From NCBI GenBank assembly GCA_049324575.1, contig JBMONI010000024.1:53144-117143 (forward strand): a stretch of DNA of 64,000 nucleotides. The letters run 5' to 3'. Every line of letters begins with the position of its first letter. Within the stretch, counting starts at the first letter, position 1. Under the pieces are notes generated by a model, which had not been told where the DNA came from, searched no databases, and saw only the letters and a program-made list of their open reading frames with translations. Source of the DNA: Candidatus Omnitrophota bacterium (lineage in GTDB: Bacteria > Omnitrophota > Omnitrophia > Omnitrophales > Aquincolibacteriaceae). This document shows, piece by piece, positions 46,141 to 64,000 of the stretch. Both the position numbers and the translations under genes were made by a program.

Positions 46141-46316
46141 CACGCACCTCTTTTCTATTGCAGAAGTGCACAGGATCAAGACTCAGGGACACCCACAAAC
46201 CCAAAACACCCTTTTCCAAGACCTACGTTTCGGCAGCTTCTTTCCACGGCTTCAGAAAGCTCACGCCCCTTTTGACAATGTCGTCACCGTCAGGCAGCGC
46301 ATGATGAATCCTGCTT

Positions 46317-46634: not shown

Positions 46635-46709
46635 TGGAGCCTCCGTTTCAACATTTTACGGATCTTTTCCCCTTCGATAAGACCGGCAGCCCTGTCCGCT
46701 CGGCCGCGC

Positions 46710-47576: not shown

Positions 47577-47984
47577 TCAGGACCCGCCCAGCAATTTCCT
47601 GACCGTCGTCAGAAACTCTTCGACCGAGTAGGATTTACTGATGACCGCGTCCGCCCTCTGCAGATCGAAGGCCAACGGACTGTCGCCGGGTTCCATTTGT
47701 TGGGTCAGAAAACGGTGCACGACAGGATCCGCGCTGAAAATAGCGACCTTGGGCACTGCCGTTTCGGGAGAATAGCTCTTCATGTTCTTCAAAAGTTCGA
47801 GTCCGCTGAAATGAGGCACTTTGATATCCAGAAGGACCAGGTCATAATTGCCCTTGGCGATCATGGCCTTTCCGCGGATCCCGTCGAACGCCATGTCAAC
47901 CCCATATCCCTCCGCGGCAAGGGCTTCCGCCAATTCTTCGCACAAAACTTCATCATCATCCATCACGAGGACTCTCTTTTTCAT
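47577..47984 (-). CDS. single-domain response regulator receiver, cognate partner of the downstream multi-PAS kinase
   Basis: MKKRVLVMDDDEVLCEELAEALAAEGYGVDMAFDG…LVLLDIKVPHFSGLEL. Its ATG overlaps the kinase stop (ATGA). Track ORF 47577..48095 trimmed to the internal start. Confidence 0.85.
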   Translation of the reverse strand: MKKRVLVMDDDEVLCEELAEALAAEGYGVDMAFDGIRGKAMIAKGNYDLVLLDIKVPHFSGLELLKNMKSYSPETAVPKVAIFSADPVVHRFLTQQMEPGDSPLAFDLQRADAVISKSYSVEEFLTTVRKLLGGS

Positions 47985-50900
47985 GGCGGTCCGCTCTCCC
48001 CAAGGACCGGCAAAACGACCGTGATCGTCGTGCCCTTCCCTTCTTCGCTCGCCACGTCGATACGGCCCCCGTGATTCGCCACGATCTGTTGGCAAACCGT
48101 CAGGCCCAGCCCTGTCCCCTTGGTCTTGGTCGTGAAAAACGGCTCATGGATCTTGGAAAGATTTTCTCGGCTGATCCCGCAGCCGTTGTCCTCGAACCGG
48201 ACGGCAACCTCGCGGCCTTCATTCTCATACCCGGCTCCGACCACGATCCTTCCGTTCTTATTCGAAACCGCATCCACGGCATTGATCAAAATATTGTGGC
48301 AGACTTCTTTGACTTGGAAAGGGTCGAACTTGAACACTTTGCCGCGGATGTTTTCATAGTTCTTCACCCATTCAATCGCGTGTTCCCCCGCCCCGTGCTT
48401 CACCGCCTCGATACATTCCTCCAAAAGATCAAAAAGATCCGCCTCTTCCCAAACGGGCTTCCGGATGCGGGAATAAAACAAGAGGTTATTGATGATCTGA
48501 TCCGACTCCGCCACTTTTTTCTCGATGTGGATAAGATGCTTCTCGAGAAGCGGACCGGGGGCTTTTTGCTTGATGTTATAGGATGCGATACGGATCGCCC
48601 CAAGCGGCGTCCGCAATTCATGCGCCACGGTCGCGGCCAGGGCGCCAATGTCGGAAAGCCGTTTAGCTCTCTCAAGCTCGGTCTGGGCGCGGAACAACTC
48701 GTCGGTCCTTTCCTGGACCAGTTTTTCAAAGGTTTCCTTGTCCCGTTTCAGGATCTCTTCGGCTTTCTTCCGGTCCGTGATATCGATACAAATACCGGTC
48801 ATACGCTTTGGCTGTCCATGGTCATCGTAGAGGGTATTGCCCATTGCACTGATCCACCGCACTTCTCCGCCCGGTAAAACGATCCTATATTCATTCTGAA
48901 GCGGAATGCGGTCGCGAATAGCTTGATCGATCTTTGCTTCGGCCGCGGCACGGTCCTCGGGATGGAGCGCTTTTTTCCAGACCTCAAAAGAGCTCTCCCG
49001 GGAGGACGGATCCAGCCCAAAAAGAAAAAAGAACTCCGGCGACCAGGTGAGTTCCCCGGTCTTCAAGTCCCAATCCCAGATCCCCGCTCGGGCGGCCTGC
49101 TGCGCAAGGACCAGCCTTTCGTGAGCTTGACGCAGCGCTTCCTCCGCATGCTTTCGGTCGGTGATGTCCTGGGTGATGCCGAATCCGCCGGTGAATTTTC
49201 CGTGCTCATCGAATTCCAGATAGGCTTTCTCACGCACCCACTTGACGTGGCCGGAAACCACGATCCGGTGTTCGACCTCATAGGGCTTGCCGGTCAGTCC
49301 TGCCTTCCACTCGCGATCCACGAATTCACGGTCCTCGGGATGAACGCATTCCATAAAGGTTTCATAACTCATCGGAGCGCCCAGCGGGACGCCGAAAATG
49401 CGATGGTTTTCCTCCGACCACGTCAGAACATTGCGCCGCATATCCAGACGCCAGCTCCCCACATGCGCGACCGCCTGCGCATGGCTCAGGTCCTGCTGGC
49501 TTTTCCAGAGCGCTTCTTCGGCACGCTTGATCTCGGTAATATCCACGCTGAAACCGATGATCCCGATCATTTCGCCCTTTTCATTCACATAAGGCACTTT
49601 GTTGGTGCTCACGATCTTTCTTTCCCCTCTTGCCTCCATCGCTTCGACGATCCCGTATTTCGGCTGACCGGAGGCCAACACCGCACGATCGTCCTGCCAA
49701 TAGGCCTCCGCTTGCTCTTTCGGATAAAGGTCGAAAACGGACCGGCCCTCCAGTTGCTGTTTGGGCAACCCCATCATCTCTTCAAACTTCTTGTTCGTCC
49801 GGATAAAGCGGTTTTCTTTGTCCTTATAAAAGATCATCGCAGGCACGGAATCGAGGATCGTCTGAAGTTCGGCTTTCTTACTTTCGGCCTGGGCAGTCCG
49901 CTCCCGGACCAGGTCTTCCAAATGCGCACGATGTTCGGCTAATTCCGCCTCCGCCCTTTTACGATCCGTAATATCAATCCCTATTTCAAGCACCAATCGG
50001 GCGCCGTCGGTGTCGGTAAAAGGAAGCGCGTGCACCTCATAATCGCGTCCGTCCGGCCCGGTCCATTCCCCGAAATAAGGCCGGCCGGAGCGGAGCGTCT
50101 GGAAGATCTCGCAATTTTCGCAGCGGTCCCTCTGGTTGAAGATACACTCGTAGCATCGCCGTCCATGATCTTTTCCGAAGTGCTCGCGGAAGAATTTATT
50201 GGCGAAAGACACTTCCTTGCAGCCTTCCGACAGGAGCACCACATAGACCGGAAGCGTTTCCAGAACCTCGAAGAGCCGCTTCCGCTCAGCGATCGCCGCC
50301 GCTGAAAACTTTTTCAGTTTTCCGGACATTTGATCGAAAGCCCGGGAAAGCTGACCGATCTCATCGTTCGACGAGGACCCGATCTGATATTCCCAATTCC
50401 CGTTTCCAATGATCTCCGTGCCGCGGGTAAGACGCTGAAGCGGCTTCGAGATCGATCGCATCAGGGAAAGCGCCAAAAAACCGCTCAGCGCGATCACGAC
50501 CACAAGAAAAACGGCCACCTGATTTCGTAACCGGCGGATATCCGCAAAGGCTTCCCGGCGATCGATCTTGGCCACCAGGCCCCAATCGAGCGTCGGGATA
50601 TGGCGCCATGCCGCCACCACTTCCCGGCCACGGTAATCGATGTCGGCACCAACGCCTCTCGGCTCCTGTATGGCTTTCTGGATAGGGCCCCCAAGCGCAT
50701 CCCCGAGTCGGATACGCCTTTCCAAGGCTGCGCGGGGGTCATGACGAAGGGGGTTTAAAAAGATCACCTGATCCCCGAGCTTTTTCCCGATCAAAGTCTC
50801 TCCGGTCTTTCCCAGGCCGGTCACATCCTGGATCATTCGGTAAAAGGGCGCGAGATCCGCCTCAAAAACGATCCACCCGATCGGCAAACCGTCCGGATCT

Positions 50901-51439
50901 AAAAGCGGCGCCGTTGCCCGGACCGCGAGATGTTGGCGGGAAGGTTCATGCACCAACACATCGGAAATAAAAGCCCCTTCGTCCTGACCTTCGTGGATCT
51001 TCCGCTGACGTTCCGCGAGTTCTTTCAGAAAGTCTTCTTCGAAATGACGGGGATGGCTCGCATAGATCGGATCGCCGTCAAGGTCGAGGAGAATAATGGC
51101 GGATAACCGCCAGACCCGGGTCGCTTTTTGCAGGATCTCGTCGAGTATTTTCGTGGCCACCGCAGTCTCTGAAGCGGACGGTTCCCCGGCAAAGCGCGCG
51201 CAAATGGAAAAGTTCTTTCGGACCGAATGGTCGGCCTGAATGATCCCGAGGTCCGCTTTAATCGACGCAAAATACGCTTCGATATTTTCCGCTTTCAAGT
51301 CCGCAATGCTTTGAAGATGGGCAAAAACCTCGCCGCGCATCGACCTTTCATAATTACGAAAGGTCAGGAAGGTAATGAAAACGAGAGGAAGAAGGCAACA
51401 TCCCAGGAATAAGAAGATCAGCTTCGAGCGTATTGACAT
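47981..51439 (-). CDS. multi-sensor histidine kinase (TM + extracytoplasmic sensor + HAMP + four or more PAS/PAC + HisKA + HATPase_c)
   Basis: N-terminal TM MSIRSKLIFLFLGCCLLPLVFITFLTF. Second TM ~300 then HAMP. Repeated PAS/PAC units (…RFIRTNKKFEEMMG…, …HPEDREFVDREW…, …HPEDRAAAEAKI…). H-box ATVAHELRTPLGAIR. N/G boxes (HNILINAVDA…, DNGCGISRENLSKIHEPFFTTK, GTGLGLTVCQ). Confidence 0.9.
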   Translation of the reverse strand: MSIRSKLIFLFLGCCLLPLVFITFLTFRNYERSMRGEVFAHLQSIADLKAENIEAYFASIKADLGIIQADHSVRKNFSICARFAGEPSASETAVATKILDEILQKATRVWRLSAIILLDLDGDPIYASHPRHFEEDFLKELAERQRKIHEGQDEGAFISDVLVHEPSRQHLAVRATAPLLDPDGLPIGWIVFEADLAPFYRMIQDVTGLGKTGETLIGKKLGDQVIFLNPLRHDPRAALERRIRLGDALGGPIQKAIQEPRGVGADIDYRGREVVAAWRHIPTLDWGLVAKIDRREAFADIRRLRNQVAVFLVVVIALSGFLALSLMRSISKPLQRLTRGTEIIGNGNWEYQIGSSSNDEIGQLSRAFDQMSGKLKKFSAAAIAERKRLFEVLETLPVYVVLLSEGCKEVSFANKFFREHFGKDHGRRCYECIFNQRDRCENCEIFQTLRSGRPYFGEWTGPDGRDYEVHALPFTDTDGARLVLEIGIDITDRKRAEAELAEHRAHLEDLVRERTAQAESKKAELQTILDSVPAMIFYKDKENRFIRTNKKFEEMMGLPKQQLEGRSVFDLYPKEQAEAYWQDDRAVLASGQPKYGIVEAMEARGERKIVSTNKVPYVNEKGEMIGIIGFSVDITEIKRAEEALWKSQQDLSHAQAVAHVGSWRLDMRRNVLTWSEENHRIFGVPLGAPMSYETFMECVHPEDREFVDREWKAGLTGKPYEVEHRIVVSGHVKWVREKAYLEFDEHGKFTGGFGITQDITDRKHAEEALRQAHERLVLAQQAARAGIWDWDLKTGELTWSPEFFFLFGLDPSSRESSFEVWKKALHPEDRAAAEAKIDQAIRDRIPLQNEYRIVLPGGEVRWISAMGNTLYDDHGQPKRMTGICIDITDRKKAEEILKRDKETFEKLVQERTDELFRAQTELERAKRLSDIGALAATVAHELRTPLGAIRIASYNIKQKAPGPLLEKHLIHIEKKVAESDQIINNLLFYSRIRKPVWEEADLFDLLEECIEAVKHGAGEHAIEWVKNYENIRGKVFKFDPFQVKEVCHNILINAVDAVSNKNGRIVVGAGYENEGREVAVRFEDNGCGISRENLSKIHEPFFTTKTKGTGLGLTVCQQIVANHGGRIDVASEEGKGTTITVVLPVLGESGPP

Positions 51440-51578
51440 CGCAATGCGGTCCTTACTTGCGAGCGCGAACCCGCCTTTTTTTAGTCATGTTCATAACGGT
51501 ATTTCTTGCCCCCCCTTATCCGACACGAGACCGAACCGTCCAGCAGCAGTCCTTCGGATAAAGAAAAATCGAAAAATA

Positions 51579-52367
51579 TCAGCGTCTTCTTTCGGAGCGC
51601 TTTTGTTTGCCTTTTCCTTTTCGAGCCGCCGGACGAGAAGCCAAGGAGCGTTTTCCCGTCTTCTTCTGGCGAAATTCCGTGGGGGTCTTCTTGGTAAAAC
51701 GTTTGAATTGACGGATAAAGGATTCCGGGTTTTCATAGCCGAGCTTGTAGGCGATCTGGCTCACATTCCCGTCACTGCCGCGGGCCAAAAGGGTTTTTGC
51801 TTTTTCGATCTTGAGTTTGATCCGATACTGCACATAGCTTTCCCCGGTCTCTTCTTTAAAGAGCCGGCTAAGGTACTTCGGGCTCAAGCAGACGGCTTGC
51901 GCCGCGTCTTCCAGATTGGTTTTTTTGAAACAGTTCCGTTCAATAAAGCGTTTTACTTTCTCGATCTTACCGTGCGTGCTCGCCGTATCGATATCGCTCC
52001 CCGCATGTTGCTTTTCCAGGATCGTTTCCACCATGGCCCGGATCTTTTTGGGATCGGCCGGTTTCTCGATATAGTCGTCGGCATGGCCTTTAAGCGCTTC
52101 GATCGCCGTATCTTTGTCGCTGTAACCGGTCATGATGATGATCCCCAGGGCCGGATCGGTTCGTTTGATCTCACGAAGGACATCGATCCCCCCGCGGCGG
52201 GGCATCCGGACATCCAAGATGACCAGATCAATGGCATTGGCTTTGCGGATCATATCCACGGCTTCCTGTCCATTGGCGGCTTCCAGAACGCGATATTCGG
52301 AAAAGAGATCTTTCATCTCTTCCCTGAATTCCTTATCATCATCGACGACCAACAGAGTTTCCGTCAT
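51579..52367 (-). CDS. response regulator with AraC-type HTH output domain
   Basis: REC (MTETLLVVDDDKEFREEM…LVILDVRMPRRGG…IIMTGY). C-terminal HTH_AraC (…AQAVCLSPKYLSRLFKEETGESYVQYRIKLKIEKAKTLL…IAYKLGYENPESFIRQFKRFTKKTPTEFR). Confidence 0.85.
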   Translation of the reverse strand: MTETLLVVDDDKEFREEMKDLFSEYRVLEAANGQEAVDMIRKANAIDLVILDVRMPRRGGIDVLREIKRTDPALGIIIMTGYSDKDTAIEALKGHADDYIEKPADPKKIRAMVETILEKQHAGSDIDTASTHGKIEKVKRFIERNCFKKTNLEDAAQAVCLSPKYLSRLFKEETGESYVQYRIKLKIEKAKTLLARGSDGNVSQIAYKLGYENPESFIRQFKRFTKKTPTEFRQKKTGKRSLASRPAARKGKGKQKRSERRR

Positions 52368-52907
52368 GGTACTGTCCCTTTTTTCTTCAGGAAAACCCGC
52401 AACCCTTTCTCCTCGGACCATAAGCCATCCTCATGGTCCGACCTAGGATACCCCAAACGCTCCCCCAAGTCCCATCCCCAGGCACCAGGAGACTTTCCGA
52501 GATCGATCCGAAGGCTAGCGTGTATATAACTACCATGAATCGAGAGTGGAAAAAAGTGATTTTGCTCCCCCGTCTCCCTCCGATTTCCATTCTCTGACCT
52601 CTCACCATGACGGCGCATTGCCCACTCGCTTCTTATTCGTCAAACGGCGCTCCCTTCTCAAAGAAATACCTTCCGCTTTTCGCTTTTCTGTAATGGAAAT
52701 ACGGTGAAAAAACCGGGATTTTCCGTAGAAATAAGTCAGTAAAAAGCCGAACCCGCTTCTAGACTCTGAAACCCCTGGAGCCGCATAATGCAGGGCGTTT
52801 GGAAGAGACGTATGCAGAAACAATACCGCCCGGCCCAGGCCGTGGCCAAAGAGAAAGGCGCAGGTTATTTCCATGTTGCCGCGTGATAGTTTCTCACTTT
52901 TGATAAA

Positions 52908-53309
52908 ATGGAGGCCGACATGATGCAAGAGACGGACAATGCGATCATGGTCGTCGACGATGATGAGATCTTCCTGGAAGAGCTTAGCGAATCTCTGGCC
53001 TTAAGCGGTTACAACATGATCGCCGTCAGCGATCCCACCGAGGTCATTGATCTGGCATCCGGGCTGAAACCCAAACTGATCCTGTTGGATATCAATATGC
53101 CGGGGAAGACCGGACTGGAGATCATCCGCGAGATCGGAAAACTCCCGGAATTCGACGATGTTCCCGTGATCGTGATGAGCGGCTTCTTCCAAGATGAGCT
53201 CATGCTGCTCAACGAAATTCGCGGGATCAAGCGACTCGTCAAGAAACCTTTCGGTTTAGCGGACATCCTCGGGATCATTCGGGACACCCTCAAAGGAATC
53301 CCGGCCTGA
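52908..53309 (+). CDS. single-domain CheY-like response regulator, paralog B
   Basis: IMVVDDDEIFLEELSESLALSGYNMIAV…LILLDINMPGKTGLEI…IVMSGF… GGAGG RBS favours the ATGATG start at ~52920. Confidence 0.85.
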   Translation: MEADMMQETDNAIMVVDDDEIFLEELSESLALSGYNMIAVSDPTEVIDLASGLKPKLILLDINMPGKTGLEIIREIGKLPEFDDVPVIVMSGFFQDELMLLNEIRGIKRLVKKPFGLADILGIIRDTLKGIPA

Positions 53310-53381
53310 AGAGAATTCTCACGAGGACACGGACGGCCCTAGGAGGTTTGCGTTGAATCCATTACGATCGAGCCGGATGCC

Positions 53382-54839
53382 ATGAAACTGTCAAAGACAA
53401 TCCATTACGCGACGCTCTCGGCCGCTTTTGTCGGATTCGTTTTTACTCTTTTTATCAGCCACACCTTCGTCCATTTGCACCGGTCCTTCACAATGGCCCA
53501 CTATGAACGCGTGATCAGCGAAAACGCCTTTTATCTCCATTCCCTTCTCTCCGGTCCGAACCCGCTTTCCGCCCTGTCTCCGCTGCCGCCCCAGGAGGGA
53601 TCTTTTTTTGACAAGATCGATCTCCTCCTTTCGCAGTCCCAGGGCCTGAGTAAAGACGATGAAGAGAAAAAGACGCTCGCCGCGATGCAAAAGGACCTTC
53701 GTGGATCACAGCAGTATTTGTCTCAGCTCACAAGCCCCGCCCTGGGCAAAGACCCCGCGGCCCTTGCCGCTTTTCGGGAAAAAGTCTCGGCTCCGATCAC
53801 CCAGATCCGAGACGAAGCCGGCCGGCTTGTCGAGCGTTATGAAGAAGCGGTCCGCGCACGGCTTCACATCGCCCAGGGGGTCACGGTCTTTTTTCTTTTC
53901 CTTCTCTTGGGATTTACCGCCATCGCTATCCTTTGGTCTCACCTCTACTTGTTCCGTCCTTTAAGAGCGCTGGAGATCGGCGCCGAGAAGATATGGGAAG
54001 GTGATTTTCAATACCGCCTGGACTCAACACGCCCGGATGAGATCGGTCATTTATCCCGGACCATGAAGAAAATGACGGACCATTTACTCGACCTCCAGAA
54101 AAGGATCGAACAAGAAGCCCAGCAAAAACTGCAGGCCCAGCACGAACTGCTCGATATCCAGGAGATCGAACGGAAGCGGATGGGCCAGGACCTTCACGAC
54201 GGGATCGCTCAGCGGCTGGTCGGTATTTCCTTCATGGCTCAGCTCGCCGAGGGGAAATTATCTCAGCAAAAGCCTCTCGATGCGGGGGATCTGAAAAATT
54301 TGACCGAGGAGATCAAAAAAACACTTGAGGAAACCCGGCAGCTCGCCCATGGTTTTTATCCTGTCGATCTTCAGCATTGCGGTCTCGCGCCGGCACTGCG
54401 CAATCTGGCCCAGACCTTTGAATCGACTTTTCGGATCCAATGCGATTTCACTTGCCCCGAAGACCGTATTGTCGAAGATCCGGATATCGAGGCGCACCTT
54501 TATCGCACAGCCCAAGAGGCCATGCAAAATGCGATCCGACACGGCGGGGCCAAGGAGATCCGCATTGAATACGGGAAACGGCAAGACACCGCCTTTTTAT
54601 CGATCGCCGACAATGGGAAAGGATTTTCGCCCGGCACGGAGGGCATTCAGCGGGGGATCGGTTTTCGAAGCATGTATTACCGAGCGGCTCTGATCCACGG
54701 CACTATTTCCGTCGAAACGCGAAAGAACCGGGGCACGAGGATCACGGTACGATGCCCCCTGAAGCTCCCTCATCCCCATCCGGACATCGATACGACCCCG
54801 CATCTTGTGATCAACGCGGACAAAACTCCGTCCCTCTGA
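53382..54839 (+). CDS. sensor histidine kinase, NarX/UhpB/DegS class (HisKA_3 + HATPase_c)
   Basis: Two TM segments flanking a ~130-aa sensor domain. HAMP-like linker. H-box ERKRMGQDLHDGIAQRLVGISF (HisKA_3). ATPase N/G boxes (…AIRHGGAKEIRIEY…, DNGKGFSP…, GIGFRSMYYRAAL…). Confidence 0.85.
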   Translation: MKLSKTIHYATLSAAFVGFVFTLFISHTFVHLHRSFTMAHYERVISENAFYLHSLLSGPNPLSALSPLPPQEGSFFDKIDLLLSQSQGLSKDDEEKKTLAAMQKDLRGSQQYLSQLTSPALGKDPAALAAFREKVSAPITQIRDEAGRLVERYEEAVRARLHIAQGVTVFFLFLLLGFTAIAILWSHLYLFRPLRALEIGAEKIWEGDFQYRLDSTRPDEIGHLSRTMKKMTDHLLDLQKRIEQEAQQKLQAQHELLDIQEIERKRMGQDLHDGIAQRLVGISFMAQLAEGKLSQQKPLDAGDLKNLTEEIKKTLEETRQLAHGFYPVDLQHCGLAPALRNLAQTFESTFRIQCDFTCPEDRIVEDPDIEAHLYRTAQEAMQNAIRHGGAKEIRIEYGKRQDTAFLSIADNGKGFSPGTEGIQRGIGFRSMYYRAALIHGTISVETRKNRGTRITVRCPLKLPHPHPDIDTTPHLVINADKTPSL

Positions 54840-54887
54840 GAGAATCTAGATTTTTTTTGAGATCGGGAAAAAAACCCAGGCGGTCTT

Positions 54888-55649
54888 TTATTCGTTCTGG
54901 ACCCAATGCATCGCCATGCGGATCAATTCCATGTTATTCTTCAGATTGAATTTGACCTTGATCCGCGCGCGGTAGGTTTCGATCGTCTTAACGCTCCGGT
55001 GAAGCTGCTGGGCGATCGCAACCGTCGTCGCCCCTTCACCGATAAGCCGGAAAACTTCCAATTCACGGTCGCTGAGGGACTCCATCGGCGTGAGATTGGC
55101 CTGGCCCATGTATTTTTTCTCGAGGATATGCTCCATCATCCGGTCGCTGAGGTAGATCTGGCCTTCCAGGATCTTGCGGATCGCGATGGCGATCTTTTCA
55201 ACCGCTTCTTGTTTCGTCACATAGCCCCGGGCGCCTTCCCGCAGGACCCGTTCCGCATAAAGCAGTTCGTCATGCATCGACAGAACCAGGGCCGGGACTT
55301 CGGGATGGTCCACTTTCAAGACTTTTAAGAACTCGATCCCGCTCGATCCGTTGAGGGAAATGTCTACGATCACCAGATCGGGTTTTTCGGCCGCCATCAT
55401 GGTCAGCGCCTTGGGATAATCTTCCGCCTCGCCACAAACCGTCATATCGGCTTGGGAGTTAATGAACTCCGCGATACCGCGCCGGATAATGGGATGGTCG
55501 TCAAGGATCAGGATCTTCGCCCGTTTGGAGGCATTGAAAGAGCCCCGGGGCATGGCGGCCGAAGGATCCTTTTTCGCATGCATGCCGGGAAAAGGCTCTC
55601 TCGGAGTTTCTTTTTTTTCTTGCTTGGGAATATCCATCGTTTTTTTCAT
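54888..55649 (-). CDS. NarL/FixJ (LuxR-type HTH) response regulator, cognate of the HisKA_3 kinase
   Basis: REC (ILILDDHPIIRRGIAEF…LVIVDISLNGSSGIEF). C-terminal GerE/LuxR HTH (LSDRELEVFRLIGEGATTVAIAQQLHRSVKTIETYRARIKVKF). ~40-aa Lys/Pro-rich N-terminal extension. Confidence 0.9.
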   Translation of the reverse strand: MKKTMDIPKQEKKETPREPFPGMHAKKDPSAAMPRGSFNASKRAKILILDDHPIIRRGIAEFINSQADMTVCGEAEDYPKALTMMAAEKPDLVIVDISLNGSSGIEFLKVLKVDHPEVPALVLSMHDELLYAERVLREGARGYVTKQEAVEKIAIAIRKILEGQIYLSDRMMEHILEKKYMGQANLTPMESLSDRELEVFRLIGEGATTVAIAQQLHRSVKTIETYRARIKVKFNLKNNMELIRMAMHWVQNE

Positions 55650-55964: not shown

Positions 55965-58900
55965 TTAGTTGCTCACCGTAAAAACCACCGGGATCGCATG
56001 ATCACCCGTATCGTCCGTATAAACCATGCTCAGGGTATACGTGCCGTTTGTAAGCGTGCGCGTATCAAACCCGCTGGTACCGTCCCCGTTGGGACCTCCC
56101 CACGTAAAAGGCGGCGTATAGACCTTCCCGGATTTCGTTCCGTTCAGATAATACGCCACTTTCCGGATCCCCGGATTCAGCGTGAGGTTCGGCTGGATCA
56201 TGACCGTCCCGCTCACCGTCTGACCTTCCGTAACACCGCAGATCGCCGTCGTGCAGGAAGCCGCAGGCGGAGACGCCGTCGTCAGGGTCGAGATCGCGGC
56301 CTGTGCCGCCTGATTCCCCGCCGCATCCTTCGACTTCACACGGAATTCATACACCGTGCTTGGGGCCAATCCGCTCAACGTCATTGAATGGTTGGTCACC
56401 AGCGCCGGATCGACGCTCGTCACCGACCAATTCGCGGTCCCTTGGACGCGGTATTCCACCAGGGAATCGCTGGCCTCATCCGTCGTCCATTGGATCGTGG
56501 CGCCGGTCTCGGTCACATTCGCCGAGGTCACCGCGCTGATTACCGGTACGGTCGTATCCGGAGCCGGAACCACGGCATTTTTCACCGTAAAGCTGATTTG
56601 AACCCCGTGATCACCCGTCGCATCGGTATACCCCATCGCCAGCGTGTAATTTCCGTCCGCAAGGGTACGCGTGTCAAATCCCGTCGTCCCATCCCCGCTC
56701 GGCCCGCCCCACAAAAAGGGCGCCTGATATACTTTCCCGGATTTTGTTCCGTTCAAATAATAGGCGACCTTGCGAATACCCGGATGGAGCGTGAGATTGG
56801 GACCGATATTCACCATCCCGCTCACGATAGCACCCTCGGCCACTCCCACGAAATCCCCTGTCGAGGGAACGGTTGTATCGGCCGTCGTCAGGGTCGAGAT
56901 CGCGGCCTGCGTTGCCTGATTCCCCGCCGCATCCTTCGACTTCACGCGGAATTCATACACCGTGCCCGGAACCAACCCGCTCAGCGTCATCGAATGGCTG
57001 GTCACCAGCGCCGGATCGACGACTGTCGCCGACCAATCCGCGGCCCCTTGGACGCGATATTCCACCAGAGAATCGCTAGCCTCATCCGTCGCCCATTGGA
57101 TCGTGGCACCGGTTTCGGTCACATCCGCCGAAGTCACCGCGCTGATCACCGGAGCGGCCGTATCCGCCGGCGTTAAGGTCGTCAGGGTCGAGATCGCGGC
57201 CTGCGTTGCCTGATTCCCCGCCGCATCCTTCGACTTCACGCGGAATTCATATACCGTACCCGGAACCAACCCGTTCAACGTCATCGAATGGCTGGTCACC
57301 AGCGCCGGATCGACGACTGTCGCCGACCAATCCGCGGCCCCTTGGACGCGATATTCCACCAGAGAATCGCTGGCCTCATCCGTCGCCCATTGGATCGTGG
57401 CGCCGGTTTCGGTCACATCCGCCGAAGTCACCGCGCTGATCACCGGAGCGGCCGTATCCGAAGCCGTATTGCTGACAACAAAGGATACCGACATGCTATG
57501 ATCCCCTGTGCTATCGGTATACCCCATCGCCAAAGTATAGTTCCCGTCCGAAAGCGTGCGGGTATCGAATCCTGTCGTTCCATCCCCGCTCGGCCCGCCC
57601 CACAAATACGGCGAGGCGTACACTTTTCCGGACTGGGTCCCATTCAGATAATAGGCGGCTTTCCGGATATCGGGATGCACATAAAGATTCGGCCCGATGT
57701 TCACCACGCCGCTGACCGTGGCCCCTTCGGTCACTCCGACATAGTCCCCTGTCGGTGCCGGATTCGCCGTTGTAAACGTCGCGATCGTAGCCTGAGTGGC
57801 CAAATTCCCCGCCGCATCCCTGGATTTCACACGAAATTGATAGACCGTACTTGCGATCAGCCCGTTCAGGTTGATCGAATGATTCGTCACCCAGGAAGGC
57901 TGCAGGCTTGTCGCAAGCCAATCGCTGTCCCCCTGGACACGATACTCGACCTGCGAATCACTGGGTTCATGAGTGGCCCAGGTGATCGTCGCGCCGTTTG
58001 AAGTGACATTGCTTACCGCCACCGCACTGATCAGAGGCGCTTCCGTATCCGGAGGAAGATTCATCACCGAGAAGCTAACGCTCATCTCATGGGTCTCGGC
58101 CGCCCCATAACAAAGGGCATTCAGGGTGTAATCCCCATTTTCGAGCGTCCGGGTATCCAATCCGCTGGTTCCATTTCCGGAAATACCTCCCCAATAAAAA
58201 GGAGACTGATCGACATCGCCCGAGCTTACGCCGTTCAGCAAATAGACAACCCGGTTAAGATCCGTATGGATCTGGAGATTCGGACCAATCTGGACCGTTC
58301 CGCTGACCGTCGCACCGTTCTGAACACCGGTAAATTCCGGCTGGACACCGCCGGTGCTTCCGAATTCGTACGCGCCAATATCGACACTGCTGCCGGCAAC
58401 CCGCTCATGGCCATCGAGATCCGAAGTTCCGAGCGGATAGACCATCGAACCGGCATCAATCGCGGGACTGCCGGATTGAAGGTGGAAATCCCTGCCGCTC
58501 AAGTCCACAAGCCGCGGATCCACGAACTGGCTTGTCGAACTGAGAGTAAAACCCGCAGGGTGATTGGGGTCATACCAAATATTGTTGCTCTCCGTCATCG
58601 AACCGCCATCCCGCACATAGAGCGCGCCTGAAGCGAGGTTGCGAACGATAATGGAGTTTTGCAGCGTTGTGCTTGAAGCTCCCCCATCGTTATCGATGCG
58701 GATATCGGCGGTTTCGTTGTTCGCAAAAGTGGTGTTGATAAACGTGATCTGCCCCATGCGATTGTTGACCCCATAACCTTCTCCCGCAACAGGGTCCCCA
58801 ACGAAGACTTTTGCGTCATGAGACAAGGAATCCTTCACCACGATCCCGGATCCCCAGACCTTGAAGTTGTTCTTGTTGCCGTAGACTTCGACATTCTCCA

Positions 58901-59954
58901 TCAGCACGTTCGTCGCTTTCACGTCAAAACCGCCGTCCCAATTGTCATAGGACTTGACGTTCCGGACCGTGATCCGGTTGCCGAATTCCAAAATGAACCC
59001 GTCGCCGTTGCGGTATCTCGTCTCAAATCCCGAGTAAACGTCTTTCGATCCGCTCACGTCGATATTCTCATAGAGAATGTCGGTCGGAGTGACCCCGGTG
59101 GTCGCTTCCGTGCGGAAACCGTTACGGCTATTGGTCACGACGGCATTGCGGACCGTCACGTGATCGCCGCCGTTGATCAGGACCGCAAAATGGTTACGGT
59201 CGGCCCGGAGCCCGTCGATCTCGATATAAGAACTGTTCGGACCGACGGTCACGGCCGCCCGCAGATTATTCACTGTCAAATTATTGAAATGGATGTAATC
59301 TTGGCCGTTGGTATTGAAAGCCGGGTTGTAATTAGCGGCGACCGTATATCCACTGATCGTCGTTGTGGTCGTGCCTTCGATCACCACGTTGCCCAGACCC
59401 TGAATCGTGATCGGAGCATCCGCGGTCCCCGAGGTTGAAAACACCGCCCCGCTTCCCGGCTGCTGGTAAGTTCCCTCCATGATATAGAGAGTATCTCCGG
59501 CCTGAAGCTGCGAGACCGCGTAGGAGATGCTTCCATAAGGATCCGCCTCGGATCCATCTCCTTGATCACTGCCGGTTGCCGATAGATAGAACGACCGCCC
59601 TTGCGTCGTCAAGGCGGCGGTCGGCGCGCTGAGCGGCCCGGCCATGAAGAAGTCTTCAGTCGGGGCAGGCTCCGTTTGCGCGCTTGTTTCGGAAACTGTC
59701 TCTTGAAGCGGCTCGTCCAAGGCAACCGTCGGCGTTTGAGGATTAATCAGCTCATCCGCGGTCGGAGGCGGGACTTCGGCCCGCACATAGTCGGCCAACG
59801 TCACTTGACCCAGAAAAAGAGCCGCGACGGCTGTTGAAAGGATCTTCCGTGACTGGCTCAGGACCTTTTTCCGGATCTTGTTTTTCCCGCGGAGGGATTC
59901 CTTGCTCTCTTTTTCACGAAGCTCGTCTTGCTCTGCAATGATGGTGAATGTCAT
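55965..59954 (-). CDS. giant cell-surface protein: N-terminal anchor, right-handed parallel beta-helix (pectate-lyase/NosD-like) domain, then alternating Ig-like and fibronectin-type-III repeats
   Basis: Start moved to MTFTIIAEQ…; hydrophobic anchor ILSTAVAALFLGQVTLA. Beta-helix region with Asn/Thr ladders (…NNRMGQITFINTTFANNETADIRIDNDGGASSTTLQNSIIVRN…) ending in the DIGAYEFG motif. Four ~95-aa modules of type …GxTVSGxVxIGPNLxxHP…YYLNGTKSGKV…WGGPSGDGTTGFDTRTL…SVxFxVxN alternate with five FN3-like modules (…PVISAVTSADVTETGATIQWATDEASDSLVEYRVQG…TVYEFRVKSKDAAGN…). Two FN3 copies are ~98 % identical. Confidence 0.85.
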   Translation of the reverse strand: MTFTIIAEQDELREKESKESLRGKNKIRKKVLSQSRKILSTAVAALFLGQVTLADYVRAEVPPPTADELINPQTPTVALDEPLQETVSETSAQTEPAPTEDFFMAGPLSAPTAALTTQGRSFYLSATGSDQGDGSEADPYGSISYAVSQLQAGDTLYIMEGTYQQPGSGAVFSTSGTADAPITIQGLGNVVIEGTTTTTISGYTVAANYNPAFNTNGQDYIHFNNLTVNNLRAAVTVGPNSSYIEIDGLRADRNHFAVLINGGDHVTVRNAVVTNSRNGFRTEATTGVTPTDILYENIDVSGSKDVYSGFETRYRNGDGFILEFGNRITVRNVKSYDNWDGGFDVKATNVLMENVEVYGNKNNFKVWGSGIVVKDSLSHDAKVFVGDPVAGEGYGVNNRMGQITFINTTFANNETADIRIDNDGGASSTTLQNSIIVRNLASGALYVRDGGSMTESNNIWYDPNHPAGFTLSSTSQFVDPRLVDLSGRDFHLQSGSPAIDAGSMVYPLGTSDLDGHERVAGSSVDIGAYEFGSTGGVQPEFTGVQNGATVSGTVQIGPNLQIHTDLNRVVYLLNGVSSGDVDQSPFYWGGISGNGTSGLDTRTLENGDYTLNALCYGAAETHEMSVSFSVMNLPPDTEAPLISAVAVSNVTSNGATITWATHEPSDSQVEYRVQGDSDWLATSLQPSWVTNHSINLNGLIASTVYQFRVKSRDAAGNLATQATIATFTTANPAPTGDYVGVTEGATVSGVVNIGPNLYVHPDIRKAAYYLNGTQSGKVYASPYLWGGPSGDGTTGFDTRTLSDGNYTLAMGYTDSTGDHSMSVSFVVSNTASDTAAPVISAVTSADVTETGATIQWATDEASDSLVEYRVQGAADWSATVVDPALVTSHSMTLNGLVPGTVYEFRVKSKDAAGNQATQAAISTLTTLTPADTAAPVISAVTSADVTETGATIQWATDEASDSLVEYRVQGAADWSATVVDPALVTSHSMTLSGLVPGTVYEFRVKSKDAAGNQATQAAISTLTTADTTVPSTGDFVGVAEGAIVSGMVNIGPNLTLHPGIRKVAYYLNGTKSGKVYQAPFLWGGPSGDGTTGFDTRTLADGNYTLAMGYTDATGDHGVQISFTVKNAVVPAPDTTVPVISAVTSANVTETGATIQWTTDEASDSLVEYRVQGTANWSVTSVDPALVTNHSMTLSGLAPSTVYEFRVKSKDAAGNQAAQAAISTLTTASPPAASCTTAICGVTEGQTVSGTVMIQPNLTLNPGIRKVAYYLNGTKSGKVYTPPFTWGGPNGDGTSGFDTRTLTNGTYTLSMVYTDDTGDHAIPVVFTVSN
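56880..57480. repeat. near-identical ~297-bp tandem duplication (two FN3-module copies) inside the surface-protein gene; a third diverged copy lies at ~56300..56600
   Basis: Identical peptides at a 99-aa offset (TAAPVISAVTSADVTETGATIQWATDEASDSLVEYRVQGAADWSATVVDPALVTSHSMTL[N/S]GLVPGTVYEFRVKSKDAAGNQATQAAISTLTT). The plus-strand antisense ORFs 56873.. and 57206.. also repeat the same peptide 333 nt apart. Confidence 0.8.
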
Positions 59955-60581
59955 TTTCAAATTCTCCTTTTTTGAATTTACAAAGCTCAAGGAGAACGAA
60001 ATGTCAGAGGCAAGTGCAGGAACGATAGAGGTGCGTAAGATATGTCTGAATGAAACCGTCAGAACCGCGAAACCTTCACCTGCTTGACAACCGCGTTCTT
60101 CCTGTCAAGAACTTCAGATTTGCGATCTCGAACGATTTGGCTGGATGAGCTCTCGAGGTCTATCCCTTTTGGGATCAAATCTTCCAAACTTTTGAAAAAG
60201 CTTTGTACGTATCAGAAGATATCCGTATCTTCCGTACAACGAAACCCTACACGAGGTCCGTAAAAATATCAAGGGTCTGGAAAAAAAATAATTTTATTAT
60301 CCTTGGATGAATTACCCTAACTTCTTTGTATATATTGCGTTATAAAAATAGAAAGAATATATGTTTTCTGTTCATTAATTATTAAAAACTAACTTTTTGG
60401 AACATAAGTCAGGTAGGCCCGAATAGATGTCGGTATTTTTTGTAAGGATTTTACGCTGGTATTTATCGGGGAAAATCAGAGTTCTTGGAAGGGCCTCGCA
60501 AACAGGGTGCTGGAATCCCCAGAGCGGAGAGGAAAAACCGGAAACAACGATCCGAAAACCGATCTCAGCCGTTCGGCGCTC

Positions 60582-61505
60582 TTATGAGAATCCCTTGGCG
60601 AGACGGCGCAAACGCGGACGGATCTCCCACATAAAATTATGGACGATCGGCTTTGGCAAATAGGTCAGCAGATGGTAATAAAGAGTTTTAAGCGAAAATT
60701 TCCCCAGAATCTTCCGGAGCCTTTGAATTTCATCGCGCGCGGCCCGAAGCTCTCCCTGCTTAAGAAAAAGCGAAAGTCTCCAGGTGTGATACTGCCGCAT
60801 CAGAAGGCCTTTGGAGCCGCCGTGCTCCAGGCATCCGGTATCTTTAAAGGAGGTGTAATTCGCATCATGGATCCGGTAATAAACCAAAAACCTGGGAAGC
60901 ATGATCAAAGAAACGCCGAAACGGATGAAGCGCTTCCACATCTCCGTATCTTCGGACAATTTCCGGTCCTCATCCGGATAGCCTCCGACCTGTTCCCATA
61001 CCCGCCTCGGAAAGCTTGTCGCCGAGTGATAAAGAAAATTCTCATACTGCATCATGCGTGTGATCGTAGACGCCGGCGGCAAACGGATATCCAAGACCGT
61101 ATTTCCTTTTCCGCTGATCACCGTGACCCAACAAGAAACAAAACAATAGCCGTGCGGCAGTGTTTCAATAAAACCCCGCAGTGTTTCCAGATAATCCCGG
61201 GCGAAAAGATCATCACAGTCCAACCGGACGATCCACTCGCCGCGAGACTCCCGGATCCCCCGGTTCAGACTTTTTGCGATCCCCAGATTTTCTTCATTGC
61301 GGACAGGGCGGATATTCGGATGGGCCGCCGCGTAACGAGCCAAGATCGTGGGGGTTTTATCCTGCGACATATCATCGACCACGACCAGCTCCCAATCCCG
61401 GAACGGCTGAGCGAGCACGCTATCGATGGCCGCTGAGAGAAAATTCTCGCCGTTATAAACGGGGATGACCACCGAAAAAAAAGGCCGGGATGGATCTGGA
61501 CTCAT
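60582..61505 (-). CDS. family-2 glycosyltransferase (GT-A fold)
   Basis: FFSVVIPVYNGENFLSAAIDSVLAQPFRDWELVVVDDMSQDKT… with DxD. Its ATG overlaps the epimerase stop (ATGA). Confidence 0.85.
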   Translation of the reverse strand: MSPDPSRPFFSVVIPVYNGENFLSAAIDSVLAQPFRDWELVVVDDMSQDKTPTILARYAAAHPNIRPVRNEENLGIAKSLNRGIRESRGEWIVRLDCDDLFARDYLETLRGFIETLPHGYCFVSCWVTVISGKGNTVLDIRLPPASTITRMMQYENFLYHSATSFPRRVWEQVGGYPDEDRKLSEDTEMWKRFIRFGVSLIMLPRFLVYYRIHDANYTSFKDTGCLEHGGSKGLLMRQYHTWRLSLFLKQGELRAARDEIQRLRKILGKFSLKTLYYHLLTYLPKPIVHNFMWEIRPRLRRLAKGFS

Positions 61506-62521
61506 GCGGCCACCACCCCTGCCTTCCTCCGGGAAAGCAGCCAATCGACAAAATGTTCGATCCCGGTCTCGAAATCCGTGACCGGGAAATAACCGAACAG
61601 ACGGCGCGCCTTGCTAATATCGGCGTACGTTCGCTCTACATCGCCCGGCTGATGCGGCAGGCGGCGGATGCGCGCTTTCTTGCCCAGAACCCGCTCCAGA
61701 CAATCGATCATCTCAGCCAACGAAACCATGCGGGATTCCCCGAGGTTCACGATCTCATAGACCGGCAGGGTCTGCTTTGCCTCGGTAAGCCAGCGCAATG
61801 CCCCCAGGATCCCGCTCACGCAATCATCGATATAAGTATAGTCTCGCCGGGATTCTCCGTCCCCGAAAACGGGGATCTCTTGTCCGTCCAGGATCAGCTT
61901 TGCAAATTTATGGATCGCAAGATCGGGACGCTGGCGGGGCCCATAGACCGTAAAGAACCGCAGGCAGGCGATCCGCATCGCAAAATGGTGGTAATAACTA
62001 TGGCACAGTAGTTCACCGGCTTTTTTCGTAGCCGCATAGGGCGAGATTGGATAATCGACACAATCGGTTTCGGCAAAAGGGACCTTCGGATTATTGCCGT
62101 AGACGGAGGACGAGGAGGCAAAAAGCAAGTGCCGGATCTTCATCGCCGCGCATGCCTCCAGCAGGACCTGGGTCCCCACGATATTGGCGTCGGTATAATA
62201 CAAAGGTTCCTGCAAGGAGGGGCGGACCCCCGCCATCGCGGCCAAATGGATCACGCCCAACGGCCGTTCGCGTTGGAGGAGGCCAAACAGCCCGGTTTTA
62301 TCCCGAATATCCCCCACAACACTGGTGAAATTCCCATGCGCATCCCGCTCCTTCACCGCCCGGATATTGTCTTCCTTGATCTTGCGATCATAAAAGGCAT
62401 TGAAATTGTCGTAGGAAACTACACGATATCCGTGCTGGAGCAATCGCCCACAGACATGGGATCCGATAAAACCCGCACCGCCTGTCACCAGGACACATCC
62501 GAGACCATTACGGCTTATCAT
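61502..62521 (-). CDS. NAD-dependent nucleotide-sugar epimerase/dehydratase (extended SDR; UDP-glucuronate/UDP-GlcNAc 4-epimerase-like)
   Basis: VLVTGGAGFIGSHVCGRLL Rossmann motif. YxxxK (…YAATKKAGE…). 339 aa. Similar to the WbpP/Cap1J/LpsL class. Confidence 0.85.
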   Translation of the reverse strand: MISRNGLGCVLVTGGAGFIGSHVCGRLLQHGYRVVSYDNFNAFYDRKIKEDNIRAVKERDAHGNFTSVVGDIRDKTGLFGLLQRERPLGVIHLAAMAGVRPSLQEPLYYTDANIVGTQVLLEACAAMKIRHLLFASSSSVYGNNPKVPFAETDCVDYPISPYAATKKAGELLCHSYYHHFAMRIACLRFFTVYGPRQRPDLAIHKFAKLILDGQEIPVFGDGESRRDYTYIDDCVSGILGALRWLTEAKQTLPVYEIVNLGESRMVSLAEMIDCLERVLGKKARIRRLPHQPGDVERTYADISKARRLFGYFPVTDFETGIEHFVDWLLSRRKAGVVAA

Positions 62522-62583
62522 TGAGGCCCCTCCTCTTTCCGCACAATCATCTTCCGCGGCACCCCATCATGATCTTGTTCGAA

Positions 62584-63618
62584 TCAGTGGCACCATTTTT
62601 CCGTTTTATACCGTTTGAGGACATCGACCATCGGCCGTCTCACGGGATAAGGCAAATACCCAAGCCATGCATAGATCCTTGCCGAATTGAACATAGGAAC
62701 ATCCATCCGCTTCATCGTTTCAAGAAGCGACTTCACATCCTTCCAAAGCTTGGGTTTGGAAGCTGATAACATATTCAGAAAACTGTGGTCAAAAATCCGC
62801 GAAAGATGCCTTTGCATATAATTCCAGCTTTTTTTCCTGGCGCGTTCCACCCAGGCCCTATCCTTGGGGTCCGTCGATTCCTCTTCAATCCGTTTTAAAA
62901 GATCCTTAATGACCTTTCTCACGCCAAGATTGGTTTGGATATCTTTCCCAAGTTCTGCACTATAGGTGGAGGTTTCAGAACCCGGATGCGTCCGGATACA
63001 GGCAAGACACCTCTTATCATAAAGGCTCAATCCCCTAGACCCCACCTTGGCCCAGGCAAGCAGATCGGAATGCCACGCTGAAGGAAAGGAAGAGATTCCC
63101 CCTTCTTCGATCAAGGTCCGGCGGTGGAACAGGATCCCTGAAATGCTCATTTTGAAGAATTGCCGTTCCTGGGAAAATAAGCTGCCCAAAAATTCCGCGG
63201 GACGCATGACCTCTTTGGCATCGGGATCCATCCGCACGAGTTTTCCCGCTTCATCAATGATCTTGAACCGGCAACGGATCAAAGTCGCCTGCGGATGCTC
63301 TTGCGCGCGCCGCAACAAAACAGGCAGATATTCCTTGTGCAGGATATCATCATCGCACAAGTAGACCATCCATTCCCCTTGAGCGGCATTGAGCAGCGTA
63401 TTGAACTTTTCGATCAACGGAGTCTCGGGGGGCAACCGGAGATAACGCACCTTGCCTTGTGTCAAGTAGGGCTCGACTTTTTTCATGACGCCCTCCCGAT
63501 CCGACGAATCCCCAATGAGGATTTCATAATCTTCAAAATCCTGACCGACCGCTCCGTCCAGGGCTTCTCCCAAAAATTTCGTCCGGTTTTTTGTCGGAAT
63601 CGCAATCGTCGCTTTCAT
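62584..63618 (-). CDS. family-2 glycosyltransferase
   Basis: MKATIAIPTKNRTKFLGEALDGAVGQDFEDYEILIGDSSD…DDDILHKEYL (GT2 N-terminal nucleotide-binding region with DDD). Confidence 0.8.
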   Translation of the reverse strand: MKATIAIPTKNRTKFLGEALDGAVGQDFEDYEILIGDSSDREGVMKKVEPYLTQGKVRYLRLPPETPLIEKFNTLLNAAQGEWMVYLCDDDILHKEYLPVLLRRAQEHPQATLIRCRFKIIDEAGKLVRMDPDAKEVMRPAEFLGSLFSQERQFFKMSISGILFHRRTLIEEGGISSFPSAWHSDLLAWAKVGSRGLSLYDKRCLACIRTHPGSETSTYSAELGKDIQTNLGVRKVIKDLLKRIEEESTDPKDRAWVERARKKSWNYMQRHLSRIFDHSFLNMLSASKPKLWKDVKSLLETMKRMDVPMFNSARIYAWLGYLPYPVRRPMVDVLKRYKTEKWCH

Positions 63619-63622
63619 GACA

Positions 63623-64000
63623 TCACCGGTATATCCGGACCGCTGGGATTGGAACCACGAATTTCCCGCCCCAAGTGCGGATCCATGACATTTGGCTCAT
63701 GATTTCCTGGCGAAGATTCCACGCCAGGATCAACAGAAAGTCCGGGCGTTTCGTTCGGATAAAATCCGGTGCAACGATCGGGATCCGGCTGCCCGGAAGA
63801 TAACGGCCCTGTTTGTAGGGGCTTACATCCGCGGTTGCCGGAAGCAACTCTCTTGTGATCTTGCAATAATTAAGAAGGGTGTTCCCTTTCGCGGGAGCCC
63901 CGTAGCCCAAAACGATTTTTTTGTCTTTCTTGGCGTTCCGCAAAAATGCGAGCAATCCCTGTCTGATTCCGGCTATGCGGGATGCGAACTGCTGATAGGT
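63623..64000 (-). CDS. C-methyltransferase (C-terminal domain visible), partial: the N-terminus lies beyond the right window edge
   Basis: …KIVLGYGAPAKGNTLLNYCKI…YLPGSRIPIVAPDFIRTKRPDFLLILAWNLRQEIM… matches the C-terminal domain of NDP-hexose C-methyltransferases (TylC3/Methyltransf_14 type). The reading frame stays open to position 64000. Confidence 0.6.
   Translation of the reverse strand, partial: TYQQFASRIAGIRQGLLAFLRNAKKDKKIVLGYGAPAKGNTLLNYCKITRELLPATADVSPYKQGRYLPGSRIPIVAPDFIRTKRPDFLLILAWNLRQEIMSQMSWIRTWGGKFVVPIPAVRIYR

Follow-up and report, generated by a model that had tools for sequence, protein, structure and literature searches.

Introduction

The closest described counterparts of the genes studied here are the Wzx/Wzy-type exopolysaccharide (EPS) and group-1-capsule loci, the family 9 polysaccharide lyases (PL9) such as Pel9A, the mannuronan C5-epimerases AlgE4 and AlgG, the sugar 3-C-methyltransferases TcaB9, MtmC and KijD1 of the TylC3 family, and the S-layer slg clusters and Pgl systems of protein glycosylation. 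PL9 enzymes cleave polygalacturonate and rhamnogalacturonan, and RbmB is a lyase of Vibrio polysaccharide (VPS) encoded in the biofilm locus of Vibrio cholerae. The 3-C-methyltransferases have C5-methylating relatives, for example NovU. The sole C-methyl sugar linked to cytidine diphosphate (CDP) that we know of is the CDP-vinelose of Azotobacter, and a literature search on such sugars found nothing usable. Here, we analyzed a 64,000-nt stretch of DNA from a Candidatus Omnitrophota bacterium (GenBank assembly GCA_049324575.1, contig JBMONI010000024.1, positions 53,144 to 117,143), hereafter the window, in which four sugar-modifying genes precede a giant gene for a secreted multidomain protein. 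The initial annotation of the window had described these five genes as co-directional, and all of them were indeed present on the minus strand. It had proposed that the giant protein may carry an unusual C-methylated glycan and had named, as the alternative, a lipopolysaccharide (LPS) or EPS locus continuing beyond the window. Our analysis makes it reasonably probable that the four genes close a Wzx/Wzy-type EPS/capsule-like locus at its promoter-distal end, and that the giant protein is a separately expressed PL9-like enzyme acting on the polymer. Coordinates are those of the window unless another locus is named, and the sugar genes and the giant gene are listed 5′ to 3′ on the coding strand (Table 1).

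Extension of the glycan genes beyond the window and in sister species

The glycan genes could be followed past the right window end in a Logan contig (L001), which overlaps window positions 57431-64000 with 100% identity along 6570 nt and extends from there in the upstream direction of the coding strand. From upstream to downstream, L001 carries genes for a family 4 glycosyltransferase (GT4), a polyprenyl glycosylphosphotransferase, a 122-aa open reading frame (ORF), a weak family 2 glycosyltransferase (GT2) match, RfbF, RfbG, a DRL-family oxidoreductase, an RmlC-like protein and the C-methyltransferase whose 3′ end lies in the window. The glycosylphosphotransferase was identified as an EPS-type priming enzyme (TIGR03025, 414.8 bits against a cut-off of 295.6). 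The alternative of an LPS/EPS locus continuing beyond the window is borne out by this extension, in which the genes seen before are joined by those of a CDP-hexose cassette, by a GT4 gene and by the gene for a priming transferase of EPS type.

The sister loci L007/L008/L034, L035, L040 and L041, which derive from related Omnitrophota, are collinear with the window. The priming transferases of L007/L008/L034 and L035 are 77-78% identical to that of the window genome, and the orthologues of the last GT2 (307 aa) show 63-68% identity and have, in every case, the leader and the giant gene behind them. The 344-aa GT2 was found at the same position in L007/L008 with 59% aa identity, and also in L034, L035 and L040, L041 holding the 3′ part of the gene only. 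Collectively, the order GT2, short-chain dehydrogenase/reductase (SDR), GT2, a gap of ~600-700 bp, leader and giant gene is kept in five species. Upstream of the GT4 and the priming transferase, the sister loci encode a second GT4, a Wzy_C-family protein and a Wzx flippase, the Wzx and Wzy of L007 and L035 being assigned by PF01943/PF13440 and PF04932, respectively; L007 additionally encodes a Wzc-type autokinase (TIGR01007, 145 bits against a cut-off of 108), a Wza-type Poly_export protein and a BBP2_2 barrel. The initial annotation had suggested a contig extension as a check and had named continuation into a canonical Wzx/Wzy locus as speaking against its proposal; a continuation with Wzx, Wzy_C, Wzc and Wza was seen in the sister species, the flippase and polymerase being known from those loci only. 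The locus resembles described Wzx/Wzy EPS or group-1-capsule loci in that its priming transferase scores above the curated cut-off and is accompanied by several GT2 and GT4 enzymes and by nucleotide-sugar genes of its own, joined in the sister loci by Wzx, Wzy_C, the Wzc autokinase and Wza; it differs from them in its CDP-linked C-methyl sugar branch, in export and polymerase genes that were seen here in sister loci only, and in belonging to an uncultured phylum.

The sugar cassette varies between these loci. Genes for the DRL-family oxidoreductase, RmlC and the C-methyltransferase are present in the window locus and in L040; the cassette of L034 comprises RfbF, RfbG, RmlC, an extra GT2 and the DRL-family oxidoreductase and lacks the C-methyltransferase, and L035 lacks the whole CDP cassette. 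The C-methyl branch would be a strain-variable decoration. Polysaccharide cassettes have been described in a preprint as hypervariable, population-variable regions in Omnitrophota.

The giant protein carries a PL9-like beta-helix domain

The giant protein is arranged in the order signal peptide (residues ~1-60), Ser/Thr/Pro linker, beta-helix (110-532) and Ig-FN3-Ig-FN3-FN3-Ig-FN3-Ig; its initial description as an FN3/beta-helix protein agrees with the four FN3 matches (PF00041, E 6e-36) and the beta-helix signals found here, to which Pfam adds Ig-like matches. In NCBIfam, the N-terminus matched a 'choice-of-anchor Q' domain, with weak PelN/LIC10774 matches. A 294-bp tandem duplication in the gene (56884-57460; 2.0 copies, 97% identical) produces two near-identical FN3 modules and is recent. 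Module number also varies among the orthologues, which are 54-72% identical to the window protein: the L034 orthologue has 1359 aa and the L035 orthologue 1051 aa, compared with 1329 aa in the window; the L040 and L041 copies are truncated.

The AlphaFold2 (AF2) model of the beta-helix domain reached a predicted local distance difference test score (pLDDT) of 95.5. Its best structural matches were the C5-epimerases AlgE4 and AlgG, and the other matches included NosD, the Klebsiella K1 depolymerase and many tailspike depolymerases, with adhesins ranked lower. The Ig module was modeled with a pLDDT of 78; the possibility that it is a recognizable carbohydrate-binding module was rejected, as no PDB match below E 0.04 was obtained and the module is a generic beta-sandwich.

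A profile built from 54 members of the family aligned with Pel9A end to end, from residue 10 to 398, with E 2.6e-21. In Pel9A, whose residue numbers were verified on the chain (chain + 25), Ca2+ is bound by D209, D233, D234 and D237, and K273 is the catalytic base. The profile alignment equated MADGF (D209) with NGDGF, and DDGFD (D233, D234, D237) with WDGGFD, so that the equivalents of D209, D233 and D237 in the giant protein are D318, D340 and D344. These three residues, together with K346 and K365, were invariant in 21/21 close family sequences including the query, and E323 was kept in 20/21, despite only 43-57% identity between the close beta-helix relatives and the window protein. The subfamily is small, with 72 representatives at E≤1e-30 among 1.84 billion. 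The N-terminal domain is a pectate-lyase-fold module that looks like a polysaccharide-acting enzyme rather than a passive substrate, and the giant protein would be a PL9-like beta-helix enzyme, secreted by the Sec route and borne on a stalk of Ig and FN3 modules, with predicted substrate and activity. It differs from Pel9A, the PL9 lyases and RbmB in sharing only about 22% identity, in its eight extra Ig/FN3 modules and in its long, putatively regulatory leader.

The SDR epimerase suggests a link between the glycan genes and uronic acids

Among solved structures, the SDR encoded between the two GT2 genes was best matched by Klebsiella 5u4q (E 9e-81) and by the Bacillus cereus epimerase UGAepi (6zl6/6zla, E 2e-66), and its matches to GalE were far weaker (E 1e-36 to 1e-44). 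In the alignment to BcUGAepi, S127, S128, Y149, K153, T178 and R185 are kept, T126 is replaced by Ser, and the segment FTVYGPRQRPD is identical. These positions cover the catalytic Y-x3-K of extended SDRs, the Thr/Ser cluster for carboxylate binding and Arg185. Arg185 binds the carboxylate of UDP-galacturonate (PMC12338863). The SDR is probably a uridine diphosphate (UDP)-glucuronate 4-epimerase, with UDP-galacturonate as the predicted product. Furthermore, a UDP-glucose dehydrogenase gene adjoins the giant homologue in L034 and is overlapped by the homologue in L002. A galacturonate polymer and a PL9-like domain would form a coherent pair, because polygalacturonate and rhamnogalacturonan are what PL9 enzymes cleave.

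Neighborhoods of the giant gene and its more distant homologues

Downstream of the giant gene, a response regulator and a HisKA_3 kinase were seen at the same positions in the window, L034 and L035. In L003, an RfbF-RfbG-RmlC-DRL-C-methyltransferase cassette together with acyl/acetyl-transferases directly precedes the more distant beta-helix homologue. Between that cassette and the beta-helix gene (L003 4568-9629) are genes for an FkbH-like protein, a small acyl carrier protein (ACP)-like protein, an MBOAT protein and a hexapeptide transferase, a gene set that hints at O-acylation of the polymer, as in alginate. In L005, two paralogous beta-helix proteins of the same subfamily (10001-11794 and 13424-15340; 42% identity to the window domain) adjoin the gene for a protein of >7400 aa with NUDIX, histidine-phosphatase and protein-kinase domains.

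The C-methyltransferase and the CDP-hexose cassette

The partial ORF at the right window end matched PF08484, the C-terminal domain of C-methyltransferases, with E 1.2e-48 (165 bits, profile positions 42-160 of 160). The complete protein in L001 (430 aa) contains PF08421, Methyltransf_23/11/12 and PF08484, and aligned end to end with solved 3-C-methyltransferases, with E 7e-81 over residues 25-425 for MtmC (4rv9) and full-length alignments to KijD1 and TcaB9 (TcaB9 E 2.5e-67). The C-methyltransferase assignment of the initial annotation, which had named a lack of profile support as refuting, is thus supported by PF08421 and PF08484 and by the MtmC, KijD1 and TcaB9 alignments. C3 methylation of a nucleoside diphosphate (NDP)-4-keto-6-deoxyhexose is the predicted activity. 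The cassette further encodes a glucose-1-phosphate cytidylyltransferase (RfbF, 405 bits, cut-off 300), a CDP-glucose 4,6-dehydratase (RfbG, 497 bits, cut-off 278) and an RmlC-like epimerase (170 bits, cut-off 156). The methyltransferase therefore shares with TcaB9, MtmC and KijD1 the PF08421+PF08484 architecture, full-length similarity (E 1e-67 to 1e-81) and, in adjoining a 4,6-dehydratase, a supply of the required 4-keto sugar; it differs in its predicted carrier, which by the RfbF and RfbG equivalogs would be CDP and not deoxythymidine diphosphate (dTDP), and in its setting, a surface polysaccharide and not an antibiotic.

The DRL-family (DRL/DXR-II-like) oxidoreductase of this cassette (455 aa, L001 5611-6978, beyond the right window end) matched the Brucella DRL structure 3upl with E 4e-57. 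Homologues of 437-470 aa were found within RfbG/RmlC-like cassettes at four loci (L001, L003 1917-3230, L034 6478-7890 and L040 436-1767), and RfbF was seen in three of these four, the L040 sequence being cut upstream. The DLO clades have been described as uncharacterised (PMC3847144). The CDP-hexose cassette is a possible functional context for them, in which the enzyme may act as a CDP-4-keto-6-deoxyhexose reductase or a rearranging enzyme; if true, this would be the first functional context for these clades.

A promoter-like element and a conserved leader precede the giant gene

The initial annotation had placed the glycan genes 'immediately' upstream of the giant gene, and the giant gene is in fact the next one; it is separated from the last GT2, however, by a 627-bp gap that holds a promoter-like element and a long leader. 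The second GT2 overlaps the SDR gene, its ATG sharing the sequence ATGA with the SDR stop at 61505-61502, as noted initially. The giant gene most likely starts at ATG 59954 (1329 aa) rather than at the longest-ORF TTG 59990, because five species share this ATG and its Shine-Dalgarno (SD) sequence AAGGAGAA. Conservation in the gap is confined to its last ~320 bp, which the five species have in common; the ~300 bp before them are rich in A and T and show no similarity among species. The promoter-like element is readable as TTGATA-17-TAGGGT, or as an extracytoplasmic function (ECF)-like GGAC-N17-TGTAC at 60259-60234, and the block CGTGTAGGGTT and the CTTG are invariant in the five species. The element was not called by the consensus scan, and the promoter/terminator scan performed at chance level. 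From this arrangement we infer that the giant gene is transcribed separately from the glycan genes and may be regulated through the promoter-like element and the leader that it has to itself.

The leader (~283 nt) shares 79-82% nt identity with L034, L035, L040 and L041, compared with 65-77% for the flanking genes, and its core (60181..60079, 104 nt), at 86-87.5% nt identity, is the most conserved DNA of the neighborhood. An anti-SD sequence CGTTCTCCTT (59998..59989), the SD sequence (59969..59962) and an alternative partner AGGAAGAACG (60103..60094) could be recognized in it. At the 3′ end, a 9-10-bp hairpin pairing GUUCUCCUU with the SD sequence folds in 5/5 sequences, with energies of -10 to -14 kcal/mol. 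When the leader is folded as a whole, the anti-SD has a different partner in the consensus structure, namely the upstream AAGAAGAACG (helix 8, 100% paired). Covariation was weak, with five pairs carrying double changes versus 2.7±1.2 in shuffles (a value reached by 29/500 shuffles), and the full-length fold of the window leader had z = -1.8. The region 59800-60700 gave no Rfam match at E≤1. Scanning JGI metagenomes with the invariant 20-mer returned four matches, all in unrelated coding sequence; blastn and a covariance model of the leader core recovered only the five known copies, single-copy per locus, in 433 kb of loci, and in the same loci no copies were found upstream of the more distant beta-helix homologues. 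A small ORF as the explanation of the conservation was rejected, as the open frames shift between species and no start is conserved.

The layout of the leader is that of a translational switch. With its two anti-SD pairings, which exclude each other, and without an Rfam match, it is a candidate new cis-regulatory RNA. The full proposal, an undescribed riboswitch-like or protein-titrated translational switch whose anti-SD toggles between the ribosome-binding site (RBS) and its AAGAAGAACG partner, is speculative and on balance unlikely. If true, it would couple the production of a secreted polysaccharide-cleaving enzyme to a cellular signal.

Feature coordinates and other genes of the window

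Table 1. Positions of the glycan genes, the giant gene and its flanking elements in the window.
Feature	Position	Strand	Basis or remark
NDP-hexose 3-C-methyltransferase, 3′ end (last 125 codons)	63622..64000	-	PF08484 match; gene runs off the window
GT2 glycosyltransferase, 344 aa	62584..63618	-	PF00535, E 1.6e-16
SDR epimerase, 339 aa, probably UDP-glucuronate 4-epimerase	61502..62521	-	PF01370, E 1e-58
GT2 glycosyltransferase, 307 aa, last gene of the glycan operon	60582..61505	-	PF00535, E 6.6e-34
Promoter-like element, conserved	60244..60272	-	Conservation only
Non-coding leader of the giant gene, ~283 nt	59955..60237	-	Conserved in five species
Giant gene, secreted multidomain protein, 1329 aa	55965..59954	-	Pfam and NCBIfam matches, domain map
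Right-handed parallel beta-helix domain, PL9 (Pel9A)-like, putative catalytic module	58359..59627	-	
Four Ig-like (Big_7-like) and four FN3 modules of the giant protein	55968..58328	-	
NarL/LuxR-type response regulator, downstream of the giant gene	54888..55649	-	PF00072+PF00196; conserved neighbor
HAMP/HisKA_3 histidine kinase, convergent with the regulator	53382..54839	+	Conserved neighbor

The two conserved neighbors belong to a larger signaling block (44491-55649), which comprises an RR-GGDEF-EAL protein, a 1152-aa dCache/HAMP/PAS histidine kinase, an AraC-type response regulator, the HisKA_3 kinase and the LuxR-type regulator. This block lies between two large proteins, and only its HisKA_3/LuxR pair is kept next to the giant gene in the sister loci. 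On its other side, a 2904-aa ORF (35526-44240, minus strand) had as its sole Pfam match a PEP-utilising enzyme PEP-binding domain (residues 1552-1731, E 6e-14); the protein is unusually long, and very long proteins have been reported for Omnitrophota. Two further ORFs on the minus strand, of 1597 aa (676-5469) and 687 aa (5882-7945), had no significant Pfam match. The latter was considered as a hidden GT-C oligosaccharyltransferase and rejected: it has a signal peptide (an internal start, MKKYFVVFFASLVLV, resembles one), lacks a series of transmembrane helices and ends in Phe, the C-terminal residue found in outer-membrane beta-barrels.

Discussion

Several observations weigh against an EPS/capsule-like locus paired with a giant enzyme that acts on its product. 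One of the four Ca2+ ligands of Pel9A is missing, D234 being replaced by Gly or Ala in the giant family. K365 (in NFKVWG) resembles K273 of Pel9A (in GFKLGG) but does not fall in the same hidden Markov model (HMM) column, GFKLGG lying in an insertion. A UDP-glucose dehydrogenase gene was not found within the 64-kb window, and Wzx, Wzy, Wzc and Wza are known from the sister loci and not from the window genome itself. Similarity of the helix domains does not track cassette type, the closest giant protein being that of L035, which has no cassette. The five syntenic loci come from fairly close relatives, so that their synteny may partly reflect descent, and the homologues in L004-L006 have no glycan genes nearby, their neighbors being a Tad pilus, a giant kinase-domain protein or CsgG. 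The last two points, and the giant gene's own promoter-like element and leader, would also suit a protein functionally unrelated to the locus, one with which the bacterium would forage on or attack other cells, as an adhesin or as a carbohydrate-active enzyme outside the cell, and which is next to the glycan genes by inherited gene order. Predatory or host-dependent lifestyles have been proposed for Omnitrophota. The phylum has also been suggested to possess multidomain carbohydrate-active enzymes that are secreted and effectors that target cell walls (10.1101/2023.11.21.568195 and a preprint), which fits such a role. We nevertheless consider it fairly unlikely, since the adjacency survives rearrangement of both the cassette and the genes beyond the kinase, two independent and more distant homologues are embedded in other glycan loci (L002 and L003), and the adjoining SDR points to a uronic acid sugar, a type of substrate on which PL9 enzymes act. 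A different activity on the same polymer, C5-epimerization of its uronic acids after polymerization, is suggested by the best structural match, AlgE4/AlgG, which are polymer-modifying enzymes tied to uronic-acid EPS. This is very improbable, as the AlgE4 sequence GYGFDPHE aligns to the family consensus ngdGiiie (NGDGFILE in the giant protein), the catalytic Asp-Pro-His motif is absent, and the match to the Pel9A profile runs end to end, unlike the repeat-wise match to AlgE4.

The evidence on protein glycosylation points the other way from the initial proposal. According to that proposal, the giant protein would be a surface or S-layer-like glycoprotein, onto which a lipid-linked glycan with the C-methyl sugar is moved by a ligase or O-oligosaccharyltransferase. 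That the glycan genes and the giant gene stay adjacent in five species is consistent with it, as is the Ser/Thr/Pro-rich linker between signal peptide and helix, which is extreme in the L034 orthologue; like S-layer slg clusters and Pgl systems, the locus has a lipid-carrier priming enzyme and glycosyltransferases adjoining a large secreted protein, and S-layer glycan clusters generally use the same logic of priming transferase, glycosyltransferases and Wzy_C protein. The Wzy_C protein of the sister loci has a match to TIGR03097, 'putative O-glycosylation ligase, exosortase A-associated', which at 42-47 bits is far under the cut-off of 188, and it scored below all curated cut-offs; it could in principle be a ligase or O-oligosaccharyltransferase, functions that sequence does not separate from that of a polymerase. 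It is, however, the only Wzy_C protein and stands in the polymerase position, and the Wza and Wzc of the sister loci indicate export of a free polymer. No oligosaccharyltransferase or protein glycosyltransferase of the PglB/STT3, PglL/Wzy_C ligase or GT-C type was found in the window or L001. The giant protein is retained in L034, where the C-methyltransferase is absent, and in L035, where the CDP cassette is absent, so the cassette varies independently of the protein that was thought to bear its product. The initial annotation had further suggested a search for sequon-rich surfaces; acceptor motifs in the giant protein occurred at the level of 1000 shuffles (N-x-S/T, 18 vs. 15.1±3.3; D/E-x-N-x-S/T, 2 vs. 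1.4; D-S/T-hydrophobic, 10 vs. 7.5). With an N-terminal domain that also looks enzyme-like and carries invariant catalytic-type residues, a glycosylated giant protein is quite improbable. A large secreted protein near glycosyltransferases is weak evidence for protein glycosylation.

The gene identities, locus extension, synteny, fold and invariant residues suggest a scheme, centered on an EPS/capsule-like polymer and its PL9-like enzyme, in which the sugar identities, the substrate and activity of the enzyme and its regulation are predictions. The polyprenyl-phosphate glycosylphosphotransferase would prime the lipid carrier, and the GT4 and GT2 enzymes would build a repeat unit, probably with galacturonate provided via the UDP-glucuronate 4-epimerase-like SDR. 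In the window strain, the unit may also contain a CDP-activated 6-deoxy-3-C-methyl-hexose, made by RfbF, RfbG, the 3-C-methyltransferase, the RmlC-like epimerase and the DXR-II-like oxidoreductase as the probable ketoreductase. It would then be flipped, polymerized and exported by Wzx, Wzy and Wzc/Wza, as encoded in the sister loci only. The giant enzyme would most likely cleave or remodel the conserved uronic-acid part of the polymer, for chain trimming, release or dispersal, comparable to RbmB on Vibrio VPS.

All components belong to known families, and the main finding is of modest interest in this respect; more deserving of further study are the candidate leader RNA and the DXR-II-like oxidoreductase found inside the CDP-hexose cassette. 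These side products, together with a well-delimited beta-helix subfamily suited to enzymology, could outweigh the main finding. For a phylum of which hardly any member has been cultured, the locus itself makes the chemistry of the cell surface concrete and testable: the predicted polymer is acidic, probably contains galacturonate and carries a CDP-derived C-methyl deoxyhexose that varies between strains, and a secreted PL9-like enzyme would be its partner.

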